Below, piece after piece: positions 3,905 to 45,794 of a stretch of DNA of 64,000 bases. Within the stretch, counting starts at the first letter, position 1. Every line of letters begins with the position of its first letter. The stretch is from an uncultured Verrucomicrobiae bacterium (GTDB lineage Bacteria; Verrucomicrobiota; Verrucomicrobiia; Palsa-1439), in NCBI GenBank assembly GCA_963812605.1, contig CAWEWF010000014.1, positions 384,001 through 448,000 on the forward strand. Direction: 5' to 3'. Position numbers and translations under genes: made by a program. The notes under the pieces were generated by a model, which was not told the DNA's origin, searched no databases, and saw nothing but the letters and a program-made list of their open reading frames with translations.

Positions 3905-3972
3905 TGTCGTCGTTCCTCAGCGCAATCGTAAAGCCACAACTATTAGCTAACACTAAGAATCATCCCACAAAT

Positions 3973-4040
3973 GGTGGGACAGGCCTCCGTGCCTGTCAAA
4001 ATCCGTCCACACAGGCCCCGAAAGCTTTCGGGGTGCCACT
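3973..4040. repeat. REP doublet (GTGGGACAGGCCTCCGTGCCTGTC type) with an interrupted right unit
   Basis: Left hairpin GACAGGC-CTCCGT-GCCTGTC; right unit CACAGG...TGCCACT has its centre replaced by CCCCGAAAGCTTTCGGGG. Confidence 0.7.
4016..4033. repeat. 18-bp palindrome CCCCGAAAGCTTTCGGGG (copy 1)
   Basis: Perfect palindrome identical to 22521-22538. Confidence 0.85.
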
Positions 4041-4046
4041 AAAGGT

Positions 4047-5036
4047 TTAGAAGACCACTTCTACGGGTACCAGCACAATTTTGCCGTAGGCGCCGGGCTG
4101 CATGAGTAATTCATGGGCGCGGGGCGCGTCTTTGAGCGGAAGCTCCTGGTTGATGACCGGCTTCAAGGAGCCGTTGGCCAGACCGGCCACCAAGGCGGCG
4201 TGGATGCTGGCGAGCTCGGTTTCGGAAGCGTTGGGTATCATCATGCCGAGGATCACCGCGTCCCGTTGCATGGTGGCGCGCGGATTGAACTCAAGCGCGC
4301 CGCGGTTGCCGATGATGACGATGCGACCATGGGGCGCGAGGACGGTGAGGTCCTTGACGAGATTGACGTTCGCCATCATTTCTAAAATCACTTCCGGACC
4401 GCGACCATCGGTGAGGGCTGTCAGCTGCGCCAGATAATCCGGAGCATGATGGTCAAGGACCTGGGAAGCGCCCTGTTGTTTCACCACATCTTGCCCGCGT
4501 CCACTGCTTGCCGTGCCAATGACACGCAACCCGCGCGCGACAGCCAATTGTACCGCCGCGATACCGACGCCGCCACTGGCGCCGTGAATAAAGACGGTCT
4601 CGCCGGGAATAGCCCGAGCTTTTTGGAAAAGCGCGCGATAGGCCGTGCTGTAAGGCGTCCCAATGGCCGCGCCCTGGGTGAAGGTGGCGTTTTCGGACAA
4701 GGAATGGACCTGCGATGTGTTACAGACCGCGAGCTGGGCGTACGCGCCTTCACGAATGCCGCTGGCGGTCCCAAAGACGTACACCCGGTCGCCGGCCTTC
4801 CATTCTTTTACGCCATCCCCGACCGCTTCCACGACGCCCGCGCCATCCGAGCCGGGTGTGAAAGGTAGTGTGGGATTGATCGCGTAAGTGCCGGCGCGAA
4901 CGTAGGCATCGAGAGGATTCACGCCGACGGCGTGCAGACGAACCAAGACGTGCCCGGGACCCGGCTTCGGGTCGGGCACTTCCTCCAGCTTCATGACCTC
5001 GGGCCCGCCAACCTGGTGAACGCGGATCGCCTGCAT
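4047..5036 (-). CDS. qor: NADPH:quinone reductase (zeta-crystallin/MDR family)
   Basis: GGPEVM, AVGVNP.D, PFTPGSDGAG, IHGASGGVG nucleotide-binding motif, GKIVL. Confidence 0.9.
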   Translation of the reverse strand: MQAIRVHQVGGPEVMKLEEVPDPKPGPGHVLVRLHAVGVNPLDAYVRAGTYAINPTLPFTPGSDGAGVVEAVGDGVKEWKAGDRVYVFGTASGIREGAYAQLAVCNTSQVHSLSENATFTQGAAIGTPYSTAYRALFQKARAIPGETVFIHGASGGVGIAAVQLAVARGLRVIGTASSGRGQDVVKQQGASQVLDHHAPDYLAQLTALTDGRGPEVILEMMANVNLVKDLTVLAPHGRIVIIGNRGALEFNPRATMQRDAVILGMMIPNASETELASIHAALVAGLANGSLKPVINQELPLKDAPRAHELLMQPGAYGKIVLVPVEVVF

Positions 5037-22144: not shown

Positions 22145-22222
22145 CGGGACGTAGCGCAGTTTGGCTAGCGCGCTTGGTTCGGGACCAAGAGGTCGCGGGT
22201 TCAAATCCCGCCGTCCCGACCA
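22145..22222 (+). tRNA. tRNA-Pro (anticodon CGG)
   Basis: Acceptor CGGGACG/CGTCCCG, anticodon arm CTTGG-TTCGGGA-CCAAG, T arm GCGGG-TTCAAAT-CCCGC, encoded CCA. Confidence 0.96.
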
Positions 22223-22240
22223 TCTTCTCAAGATGGTCGA

Positions 22241-22510
22241 ATGCAGGATACCGCCGTATATGTGTATGTACTCTGTAGCGTAAATGACGACTGGTACTAC
22301 GTCGGCTGTTCGACCGACCCGCAACGCAGGTTCATCGAGCACAATTCCGGAAAGAGCAAATCCACGCGTCATCATCGGCCCTATCAGTTGGCCTACACGG
22401 AGCAATTTCCGAATTTGTCGGCTGCACGCAAGCGAGAGCAAGAGATCAAACGGAAGAAGAGCCGTCGGTATATTGACTGGCTGATTGCGGGGCGAATCGG
22501 AGCGGTGTGA
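22241..22510 (+). CDS. Small GIY-YIG nuclease family protein (UPF0213-like)
   Basis: VYVYVL.S, YYVG.S.D..RR..EHN.G..KST...RP..L.Y.E, A.KRE..IK. Confidence 0.9.
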   Translation: MQDTAVYVYVLCSVNDDWYYVGCSTDPQRRFIEHNSGKSKSTRHHRPYQLAYTEQFPNLSAARKREQEIKRKKSRRYIDWLIAGRIGAV

Positions 22511-22515
22511 AGTTC

Positions 22516-22574
22516 GCGCGCCCCGAAAGCTTTCGGGGAGGTCGTCCCGACGGATGTCGGGACCGTCCCGACCA
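22516..22574 (+). pseudogene. Partial tRNA-Pro copy with anticodon and T arms replaced by palindromes
   Basis: GCGCG|CCCCGAAAGCTTTCGGGG|AGGTC|GTCCCGACGGATGTCGGGAC|CGTCCCGACCA aligns to tRNA GCGCG|anticodon arm|AGGTC|T arm|CGTCCCGACCA. Confidence 0.8.
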
Positions 22575-22591
22575 TCTTCCCAAGATGGTCG

Positions 22592-23419
22592 CTAGTGCGG
22601 GAGCCAAACGGGCTTGCCCTGGAATTTGAACCCTTTGTGTTCAAGTGCCTTGATCAATTTGCCAAGCCAGTGCAGCAACATGTCGAACCGCCGGAACAAG
22701 GCGTCTTCGGATTTGCGCTCGCTGTCGGCGCCACCGGAAAGGAGCGAGGTCGATCCGGTCTGCTGGACATGAATCCCGCGCGAGCGGCGTGAAAGTTCCG
22801 TTTTCCAGCGCTCCAGCGCCACCAGTCGCGCTTCGAGGGTGTAATCAACCGGCTTGATTTTTTTCAGCACTTCCTTGTCCGCCGTGGTCAACTGCCCGTG
22901 CTTGACGAACGTATCGACGATCACCGGACACAGGCGTTCCACCGCTTCGAGATGCTCGAACGCAGGCGGCACGGCGGCGGCCGGAGCTTCGGGAAGGGCT
23001 GCCGGCGGCGCGGACGGTGCGGCCATCTTGACCGGTTCAGGGGCGGGGCCAAACGATTTGATCAGGCCGGTGCTCGCACGATGTCCACCGACATGCAACA
23101 CCTTGACGGCGCCATGCTCGGCCTTCAATTCCAGGTCGATTTCCTCCGGCGTGGCGATGGTCAGCGTGAGTGTTTGGGCCGATGGATCGATGGTCGAGCG
23201 CAGCGATTTCGCCCGGAACAACTCTTGCAGGCCTTCGACGTTATGGGCATTCTGGAAGCCGATGATGTCGAGGTGGGTCATGGCGTCGACCACGAGCAAC
23301 ACGTCATCGCCGGGCGGTGTGAGGTGCACGTTGAGGGTATTGTGGATGGCCAGCGAAAGCTGGTCAAGATTCGGATGCTTCTGCCCGCCGCTGCCGAACA
23401 TTCCGCCGAATAGTGCCAT
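22592..23419 (-). CDS. Hypothetical protein, two domains with a Pro/Ala linker
   Basis: 275-aa ORF, strong RBS (AAGGAG) before ATG; no family recognised. Confidence 0.75.
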   Translation of the reverse strand: MALFGGMFGSGGQKHPNLDQLSLAIHNTLNVHLTPPGDDVLLVVDAMTHLDIIGFQNAHNVEGLQELFRAKSLRSTIDPSAQTLTLTIATPEEIDLELKAEHGAVKVLHVGGHRASTGLIKSFGPAPEPVKMAAPSAPPAALPEAPAAAVPPAFEHLEAVERLCPVIVDTFVKHGQLTTADKEVLKKIKPVDYTLEARLVALERWKTELSRRSRGIHVQQTGSTSLLSGGADSERKSEDALFRRFDMLLHWLGKLIKALEHKGFKFQGKPVWLPH

Positions 23420-35147: not shown

Positions 35148-35330
35148 CGAAATACCCTGCCATGTTCGTGATAAACGAGGATTCTTTGAGCCAATACCGT
35201 CATTGACGGAGCTCGGAGTTCGGTTGTGGACTGCATGCCTTCATTGGAAGCACGAAGCAGCCGACAGAGCCCCCTATTAGTTAGGGGTTCAAAAGATATC
35301 GTTTAAACGGCATTACGGCGGGGTATTTCG
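35148..35330 (+). ncRNA. ssrS: 6S RNA
   Basis: 183-nt rod closed by CGAAATACCCTGCC/GGCGGGGTATTTCG; internal CTTTGAGCC/GGTTCAAAAG flanking a central bubble; pheT..5-FCL..rny context typical of 6S. Confidence 0.82.
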
Positions 35331-45627: not shown

Positions 45628-45642
45628 TAATTTAGGCAGATT

Positions 45643-45729
45643 CGTTTGGGGAGCCTTTCGGGGCTGAGATTCCGCACGAGGCGGGAGACCCATGGAACCT
45701 GACCCGGGTAATGCCGGCGTAGGGAAACA
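45643..45729 (+). promoter_or_regulatory. TPP riboswitch
   Basis: GGGGAGC..GCTGAGA..GACCC..GAACCTGACCCGGGTAATGCCGGCGTAGGGA consensus directly upstream of thiC. Confidence 0.93.
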
Positions 45730-45735
45730 TAGCGC

Positions 45736-45770
45736 AAGGCCGACTCCTGGATTCAGAGTCGGCTTTTTTT
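45736..45770 (+). terminator. Intrinsic terminator (riboswitch expression platform)
   Basis: GCCGACTC-loop-GAGTCGGC followed by T7. Confidence 0.85.
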
Positions 45771-45776
45771 GTTTGG

Positions 45777-45794
45777 CCCCGAAGGCTTTCGGGG
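45777..45794. repeat. 18-bp palindrome CCCCGAAGGCTTTCGGGG (copy 3, one mismatch)
   Basis: 17/18 identical to the copies at 4016 and 22521. Confidence 0.8.

Follow-up and report, generated by a model that had tools for sequence, protein, structure and literature searches.

The closest described systems to the element reported here are GIY-YIG enzymes associated with DNA hairpins or with tRNA genes. Chenal et al. 2025 (PMC11893778) describe SsnA of Neisseria meningitidis (CDD cd10448) as a single-domain GIY-YIG protein of 94 aa that binds its hairpin repeat only as single-stranded DNA (ssDNA) and cleaves a few bases upstream. The ssnA gene is itself flanked by those hairpins, a layout that the authors compare to that of an insertion sequence, and the same paper gives SsnA a role in transformation, with a proposed function in limiting recombination or incoming DNA in Neisseria. 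Phage T4 SegB, as described in PMC2330249, is a free-standing GIY-YIG homing endonuclease encoded in a tRNA gene cluster, and its recognition site includes a conserved motif of the tRNA T stem-loop. Here we describe a 352-bp cassette, comprising an 89-residue GIY-YIG nuclease gene and a hairpin-patched partial tRNA copy, that lies behind the tRNA-Pro(CGG) gene of an uncultured Verrucomicrobiae bacterium (genome G000). The analysed stretch, referred to as the window, is 64,000 nt long (G000, contig C14, 384001-448000), and coordinates are in window numbering unless a contig is given.

The locus resembles the Ssn system described in PMC11893778 in several respects. Both have a single-domain GIY-YIG protein of about 90 aa, whose gene stands between short GC-rich hairpins in a hairpin-gene-hairpin order, and in both the hairpins have a 7-bp stem, a 4-nt loop and a TCCCG core. 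The residues Y6, Y17 and E64 that were mutated in SsnA correspond in position to Y9, Y20 and E66 here, and the stem arms fit the arm parts (YYVSBRH / WNVSBRG) of the published motif. Unlike in the Ssn system, the hairpins here sit in tRNA-derived copies, flanked by tRNA linkers, and the genes are found at tRNA genes; the hairpin copy number is also low. Similar to SegB (PMC2330249), the GIY-YIG gene is lodged among tRNA genes and is polymorphic for presence and absence among relatives. SegB promotes its own transfer, together with that of adjacent tRNA DNA, to genomes in which it is absent, but differs in that it is phage-borne, cuts double-stranded DNA, and has no duplicated tRNA part with hairpin-replaced arms. 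The initial annotation of this DNA knew of no account of the mechanism. That view is right only in part: a family of Ssn nucleases with flanking hairpins has been published, but the word 'tRNA' does not occur in the main text of PMC11893778. Full-text searches of the literature turned up no account of hairpin-patched tRNA copies, or of small GIY-YIG genes located at tRNA genes in bacteria.

The cassette at tRNA-Pro(CGG)

We favour the reading that the cassette is one copy of a family of minimal tRNA-gene cassettes that spread in a homing-like manner by means of a hairpin nuclease, and assign it a probability of roughly 0.6; we hold the identity of the cassette much more confidently than the way in which it moves. 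Its parts are the following:

22145-22222, + strand: functional tRNA-Pro(CGG) with encoded CCA, the resident site of the cassette (ARAGORN; Rfam tRNA, 69.4 bits).
22217-22239, + strand: trailer hairpin CGACCATCTT-CTC-AAGATGGTCG, in which the tRNA 3' end and CCA pair with the trailer, closing the left direct repeat (22211-22239).
22241-22510, + strand: single-domain GIY-YIG nuclease gene, 89 aa, an open reading frame (ORF) beginning nineteen bases past the tRNA (PF01541, E 4.6e-15).
22516-22520, + strand: linker GCGCG, the D-stem 3' strand plus position 26, with which the partial tRNA copy begins (direct reading).
22521-22538, + strand: perfect 18-nt palindrome CCCCGAAAGCTTTCGGGG, replacing the 17-nt anticodon arm (direct reading, fold).
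22539-22543, + strand: linker AGGTC, the tRNA variable loop (direct reading, relatives).
22544-22563, + strand: hairpin GTCCCGAC-GGAT-GTCGGGAC with an 8-bp stem, replacing the 17-nt T arm (direct reading, fold).
22563-22591, + strand: right direct repeat of acceptor 3' strand, CCA and trailer hairpin (CGTCCCGACCA plus trailer; compared with 22211-22239).

The two direct repeats are 29 nt long, 28/29 identical and 352 nt apart. The sole ORF of the 352-bp insert is the GIY-YIG gene, and neither a tyrosine or serine recombinase nor an HUH (Y1) transposase is encoded within it. The tRNA, the nuclease gene, and the second partial copy with its intact linkers and near-perfect repeat were all found where the initial annotation had placed them, and the replacement of both arms by perfect hairpins can be read directly from the sequence; its statement that no integrase accompanies the insert also stands, and relatives show that the insert is only 352 bp long. 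When 22500-22600 is folded as ssDNA, three hairpins form in a row (-29.5 kcal/mol, z -5.0), and none of 200 shuffles folded as well. The inner arms of the copy are replaced by the signature hairpin of the nuclease clade, with the stem YCCGA...TCGGR. Because there is no promoter-like site between tRNA-Pro(CGG) and the GIY-YIG gene, the two are probably co-transcribed.

The protein has the features expected of the GIY-YIG superfamily. The PF01541 match spans residues 7-75, the only other Pfam match is to the related T5orf172, and Y9, Y20, G22, R30, H34 and E66 are invariant in an alignment of 7 relatives. As in the Ssn family, it is a single domain, here of 89 aa, with no extra DNA-binding domain; SegB is larger and has a DNA-binding part. 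A search of NCBIfam returned no family, and the closest solved structures by sequence are the UPF0213 proteins 1zg2 (BH0048, E 6e-9) and 1ywl (EF2693, E 7.5e-9), matched over residues 6-82. To our knowledge the UPF0213 proteins have no known function, and we know of no tRNA context for them. The nuclease thus compares best with UPF0213 in sequence, and with the Ssn family in size and layout. Against the orthologue from the relative G012 its dN/dS is 0.13 (dS about 0.88), and that of the neighbouring DedA gene is 0.12; the GIY-YIG gene is under purifying selection.

The tRNA-Pro(CGG) sequence is 100% identical in G001, G011, G015 and G016. Its trailer hairpin is kept genus-wide with compensating changes, whether the cassette is present or not (G005, G009, G008 and G001 lack the cassette), and is also seen at the same site in L010, L016, L021 and L022; comparable trailer hairpins occur in G000 at tRNA-Ser, tRNA-Val and one tRNA fragment. 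The cassette is flanked upstream by a gene for a DedA/VTT-domain protein and downstream by a gene on the opposite strand that has no Pfam family. A public contig of 187 nt, which may come from the same sample as the genome assembly, equals 22443-22629 with 0 mismatches and includes both palindromes and the right junction. Four public runs contained the organism only as short low-depth contigs, in which no joint was found, the left junction was unbridged and 22229-22423 was uncovered. A tRNA-like RNA fold of the second copy was rejected, because neither the 5' acceptor strand nor the 5' strand of the D stem is present in it.

State of the tRNA-Pro(CGG) site in relatives

We compared the orthologous locus, which runs from the DedA gene through tRNA-Pro(CGG) to the downstream gene, among relatives of the same genus (G codes). 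The 352 bp is an insertion that some species have retained under purifying selection and that elsewhere has decayed or disappeared. Intact orthologous cassettes are found in G012 (84% aa identity) and G017 (73%), which together with G000 gives three filled species, while the cassette of G007 has decayed through an in-frame stop and that of G006 is 5'-truncated, at the far end of a 6.3-kb insert encoding an RND efflux system. The only clean empty site is that of G009, where nothing separates the tRNA and trailer hairpin from either flank; the cassette is also missing from G005, G008 and G001, but each of these retains a scar, which in G005 is a GGTCGCGGGTTC remnant downstream. A decayed, hairpin-patched pseudo-tRNA-Pro lies between DedA and the working tRNA in G008, G001, G016, G007 and G017, and its start is the exact start of the real tRNA in G009, G003 and G010. 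The cassette is therefore polymorphic for presence and absence at a conserved site, as is typical of a homing gene. The minimal tRNA-targeting element proposed in the initial annotation is borne out to this extent, being a discrete insert with one ORF for which relatives offer occupied, degenerate and scarred sites as well as an empty tRNA-Pro site.

The partial copies in these relatives establish where the second copy came from. G012, G007 and G017 have the same GCGCG linker bordering the hairpin, here TCCCGA(C/T)-N4-(G)TCGGGA, followed by AGGTC. An intact T arm, acceptor strand and trailer come next in G012 and G007; the T arm of G017 is broken by an insert. In G012 and G007, where the T arm is intact, tRNA homology continues without interruption from AGGTC as far as the trailer (94.6% over 56 nt in G012, 93.8% over 48 nt in G007), and the second copy is therefore tRNA-derived beyond doubt. 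G012 has three units, one before the gene and two after it, of which unit 2 has the intact T arm and unit 3 a decayed T-arm replacement that is 13/20 identical to the window hairpin at 22544-22563. The hairpins at fixed arm positions thus differ between orthologous cassettes, and so do turn over in place.

A tree of the neighbouring gene places G000, G012, G006 and G017 in a clade with G002 and G005, from which the nuclease gene is absent, and G007 in the other clade beside the empty G009. This arrangement requires at least one loss plus a second gain or further losses. G017 looks mosaic across the whole locus and not in the cassette alone.

The same tRNA has received other DNA, including inserts of 0.6-1.4 kb in G002, G013 and G003 and others in G015 and G006. 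In G016 (L024, G016:C48:20900-35700) tRNA-Pro(CGG) is occupied by a 13-kb element that is bounded by a 30-nt repeat of the tRNA 3' end; encoded in it are a tyrosine integrase (E 3.3e-7), a TrwC relaxase-helicase and an AbiEii toxin domain. Such neighbours raise the question of whether the cassette is the relic of an integrase-borne island that once inserted into the 3' end of tRNA-Pro and, apart from attL and attR, has since lost all but a single cargo gene. The tRNA 3'-end repeat found at either border, the use of the same tRNA by the G016 island, and the traffic of other inserts at this site in G015, G003, G002, G013 and G006 would fit that history. We nevertheless regard it as highly improbable. 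The insert is only 352 bp, the same small cassette recurs in five species at this locus and at many other tRNAs, and no tyrosine integrase was detected in any cassette examined; the repeat extends far beyond the usual core site, reaching the D stem, and is hairpin-patched, and GIY genes also lie 5' of tRNAs that have 5' duplicates.

A second type of remnant was seen in G013, G007, G017 and G022, in which a GCCGTT-N8-AACGGC hairpin is fused to AATCCCGCCGTCCCGACCA (T-loop 3' half onward); the sites are L012 2250-2300, L019 1560-1610, L015 and L023. In G013 a 0.6-kb insert comes after the remnant, and its ORF is not of the GIY kind.

Nuclease relatives, hairpin classes and the dispersed palindrome

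The protein has five relatives in G000, and three of these six GIY-YIG loci follow an intact tRNA gene while two more lie beside tRNA-derived fragments. Two of the relatives come directly after tRNA-Ser and tRNA-Val, one lies behind a tRNA 3' fragment, and another is placed among tRNA-Pro(TGG)-like copies whose anticodon arm is TCCCGAGC-N8-GCTCGGGA. In G000 a lone patched copy with no accompanying nuclease gene comes after the working tRNA-Pro(TGG). A seventh small GIY-YIG gene (C6:329335-329550, minus strand, PF01541 E 2.9e-13) was missed by the protein query. At C6:99679-99720, 67 kb upstream of the intact gene (C6:166888-166966), lies a 5' half of tRNA-Pro(TGG) that is 42 nt long and broken within the anticodon loop; the intact gene is adjoined by an integrase-like ORF (PF00589, E 2.2e-5, below Pfam's cut-off); a large integrated element has probably split the old tRNA-Pro(TGG) from its GIY cassette. 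Outside the window, C14:750058-756692 holds 19 tRNA genes in 7 kb, many of them duplicating isoacceptors found elsewhere in the genome.

Association with tRNA genes extends well beyond this genome. In a survey of 45 genomes of the family (protein match at E <= 1e-8), 25 had a match, and a same-strand tRNA was present at 22 of the 26 loci inspected, 14 times at 7-114 nt upstream and 8 times at 12-122 nt downstream, as measured from match ends and not ORF ends; where the GIY gene lies upstream of the tRNA, 5' duplicates are found. Among 151 genomes of the phylum 73 had a match. At the 29 best loci outside G000, for which context was read, 17 were next to a co-oriented tRNA; this was 92-302 nt upstream in 15 cases, and the other two were one locus behind a triple tandem array and one with the tRNA 94 nt downstream. 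No tRNA was found at the remaining 12, five of which lie no more than 290 nt from a contig start. A strong direct repeat of the trailer follows the gene immediately at 8/16 loci (scores 42-100, against a null maximum of at most 27), and a ninth, weak match is mere similarity to a second tRNA. The array at L028 (G092:C26:22075-25317) consists of three tandem copies of leader and GIY-YIG gene with a period of 364 behind tRNA-Lys; beyond them the array closes with a fourth leader and the opening bases of a further copy of the gene. The flanks of homologues, which the initial annotation had proposed to check, are of the same kind across family and phylum. The leaders and hairpins next to the GIY genes matched no Rfam family.

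A scan of species genomes found close relatives in metagenome-assembled genomes (MAGs) of Verrucomicrobia and distant ones, 39-44% identical, in two Patescibacteria, one Crocinitomicaceae and one gammaproteobacterial MAG. A tRNA lies just upstream in three of these four, namely both Patescibacteria and the Crocinitomicaceae, and behind the Crocinitomicaceae gene a CTCCGAAA.. hairpin lies within the T stem of the tRNA-Phe copy. The tRNA layout recurs in several bacterial phyla, and looks like that of a little-described minimal selfish element.

At the family loci we identified partial copies of four tRNA species in which a perfect hairpin stands as the anticodon arm between the tRNA's own linkers. 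The patch hairpin is TCCCGA.. for Pro-CGG and Pro-TGG, (AC or GC)TCCGAA.. for Thr-CGT, and CCCCGAAT.. or CCTCGAA.. for Gly-CCC. In the Thr copies the two outer anticodon-stem pairs equal those of the local tRNA in 4/5 cases (AC/GT three times, GC/GC once), and in the tRNA-Thr copy of G002 the T arm is replaced by GTCCCGAA-GGAT-TTCGGGGC, near-identical to the T-arm hairpin of the window. A scan of all of G000 for a linker, a stem of at least 7 and a second linker gave 15 places, of which 4 are patched pseudo-tRNAs and the rest real tRNAs or chance matches. All 4 are at Pro loci, at the two Pro cassettes and behind tRNA-Pro(TGG).

The hairpin class follows the nuclease clade, and each of the related nuclease lineages keeps to a single tRNA species. 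A nuclease tree of 59 sequences contains well-supported clades restricted to a single tRNA (Pro-CGG, Pro-TGG, Thr-CGT, Gly-CCC, Ser-CGA and Ala-CGC) and one large clade found at many different tRNAs. The YCCGA hairpin is confined to the first group and requires 5 changes on the tree, compared to a mean of 14.4 in shuffles, with none of 500 as low; this label was given only to perfect stems of at least 7, such that many sequences are scored as having no perfect hairpin. A CTTCG-type leader hairpin accompanies the large, many-tRNA clade. As both hairpin classes occur in G000, each with its own clade, the link is not a product of genome background, and the co-variation of hairpin and nuclease phylogeny that the initial annotation had called for is present.

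The palindrome itself is more widespread than the cassette. The window contains 4 occurrences of CCCGA-N6-TCGGG where 0.17 would be expected. Of the two recurrences of the palindrome given in the initial annotation, the copy at 45778 differs by one base (AAGGCT). That copy is a hairpin in a 5' untranslated region (5'-UTR) after a thiamine pyrophosphate (TPP) riboswitch, and the copy at 4017 is inside a dispersed repeat of about 75 nt. Throughout G000 there are 33 occurrences, 15 of them with the exact 16-nt core CCCGAAAGCTTTCGGG, and 9 of these 15 are within that one dispersed repeat, which is unrelated to the cassette; 5'-UTR hairpins (GGGCCCCGA..TTCGGGGTAAAAG type) account for several of the variants. 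The 18-mer CCCCGAAAGCTTTCGGGG has 14 copies in G000 and is present in 24/45 family genomes at up to 30 copies; two genomes from a different genus within the family have 28-30. When tallied against the nuclease, 17 of the 45 genomes have both, 8 the nuclease only, 7 the palindrome only and 13 neither, in a count where the nuclease query covers one clade and the genomes are related to one another. The 18-mer is a genome-wide and family-wide hairpin that does not depend on this nuclease.

The dispersed repeat has two hairpins and reads GGTGGGACAGGCCTCYGTGCCTGTC, spacer, CACAGGC, the 18-nt palindrome and TGCCACC. Its 9 copies in G000 are at window 3945-4050 and at C6:294258, C6:322340, C6:458756, C8:5671, C8:135466, C9:3448, C12:641 and C12:28748, and a search of Rfam with it gave no match. 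The TPP riboswitch (window 45637-45742, 73.1 bits) is followed by a terminator-like hairpin and then by the CCCCGAAGGCTTTCGGGG hairpin just before the ribosome-binding site. The window also contains a 6S RNA gene (35151-35328, 89.9 bits).

These data bear on the mechanism put forward in the initial annotation, by which the nuclease excises stem-loops at their base and overwrites them with its own palindrome, which spreads as a result. In its favour, hairpins sit exactly at arm positions between intact linkers. The orthologues also differ from one another: the anticodon-arm position reads TCCCGA(C/T)-N4-(G)TCGGGA in G012, G007 and G017 versus CCCCGAAAGCTTTCGGGG here, and the T arm that is intact in G007 and in unit 2 of G012 is here TCCCGAC-GGAT-GTCGGGA inside a retained G-C pair. 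The near-identical GGAT-loop hairpin in the G002 tRNA-Thr copy and the outer stem pairs that match the local tRNA in most Thr cases point the same way. Turnover of hairpins in place is the part of the proposal that is supported. Several observations speak against propagation of the palindrome by the enzyme: the 7 palindrome-only genomes have no detected nuclease of the clade, 8 nuclease genomes lack the 18-mer, most core copies belong to the unrelated repeat, and similar hairpins serve in 5'-UTRs. The two anticodon-arm hairpins, moreover, differ by two compensatory pairs and the loop, for which drift under hairpin constraint or gene conversion could suffice, and a GIY-YIG domain without a ligation step offers no biochemical basis for overwriting. 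Taken as a whole, we find this mechanism improbable.

Proposed spread of the cassette

IS200/IS605 elements and REP/RAYT systems use an HUH tyrosine transposase, which cuts and joins. Like the cassette, they combine an enzyme gene with short hairpins recognised as ssDNA and with dispersed solo hairpins; unlike them, the cassette has a hydrolytic GIY-YIG domain and a tRNA gene as its target. Both are also raised in the Discussion of PMC11893778.

For the favoured, homing-like reading we envisage that the nuclease would bind the signature hairpins in ssDNA, by analogy with SsnA and the NTS hairpin, and would nick beside them. The break would then be repaired by recombination, and the tRNA-derived repeats on both sides may serve as portable homology for copying the cassette to a vacant copy of that tRNA gene, giving a homing-like spread without a recombinase. 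A more elaborate version seems doubtful to us. In it, a recombinase-free mobile unit would have an Ssn-like enzyme that recognises its signature hairpin in single-stranded tRNA-derived DNA and cuts at the base of stem-loops, whole arms would be exchanged for that hairpin, and tRNA-derived arms would provide the homology for copying the unit into tRNA genes; the cloverleaf DNA would then be the target structure of a new class of minimal element. A single circular intermediate for the tRNA-GIY-copy and copy-GIY-tRNA layouts was considered and dropped, as no one model fitted the junctions.

Several observations weigh against homing-like spread. GIY-YIG enzymes hydrolyse DNA but cannot ligate it, so that any paste step needs host repair. 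The full Ssn motif (SRM; HGTCWYN(0-2)YYVSBRHN(0-5)WNVSBRGN(0-2)RNCYNB) has 31 matches in G000, none of them at GIY loci and without excess over shuffles (7 on contig C14 versus 6-12). The functional tRNA keeps its normal arms, and a simple scheme in which patches confer immunity to self-cutting therefore does not explain them. The same tRNA doubles as the attachment site of the integrase island in G016. The dN/dS of the nuclease gene matches that of a host gene, which could mean a host function. Cassette and flanks have diverged to a similar degree (82/71/74% identity for GIY versus 83/73/72% for the downstream gene), which fits long vertical descent as well as mobility and leaves no recent transfer visible. 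Near-identical copies of the cassette at different sites were not found.

Part of this evidence would suit a domesticated, non-mobile module, in which nuclease and hairpins serve the host, for example in ssDNA cutting at marked tRNA loci that would restrict recombination or the uptake of incoming DNA, as has been proposed for SsnA, and the tRNA duplicates are old by-products. The selection on the gene, the equal divergence of cassette and flanks, a presence within one clade that fits a single old gain, and the transformation role published for SsnA (PMC11893778) can all be cited in its favour. It sits less easily with the patchy presence within the genus, which includes a pseudogene, a truncation, empty sites and scars, or with tandem arrays of three cassettes at a period of 364, many copies at contig ends, and one nuclease clade at many different tRNAs. 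Signature hairpins, in addition, number only 2 at this cassette and are few elsewhere. We judge domestication to be rather unlikely.

If the cassette is mobile, it would be among the smallest autonomous elements known, at about 350 bp with one 89-residue enzyme and no recombinase, and would specialise in the cell's most conserved genes. It would also account for many of the odd partial tRNA copies and 'tRNA-like' calls of bacterial genomes and draft assemblies, contig breaks beside tRNA genes included. The nuclease lineages, apparently each with its own hairpin and tRNA, would constitute a natural library of small hairpin-specific DNA nucleases, the type of tool to which the work on Ssn points. 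Finally, repeated gain, decay and loss at one locus within one genus makes the life cycle of such an element testable.

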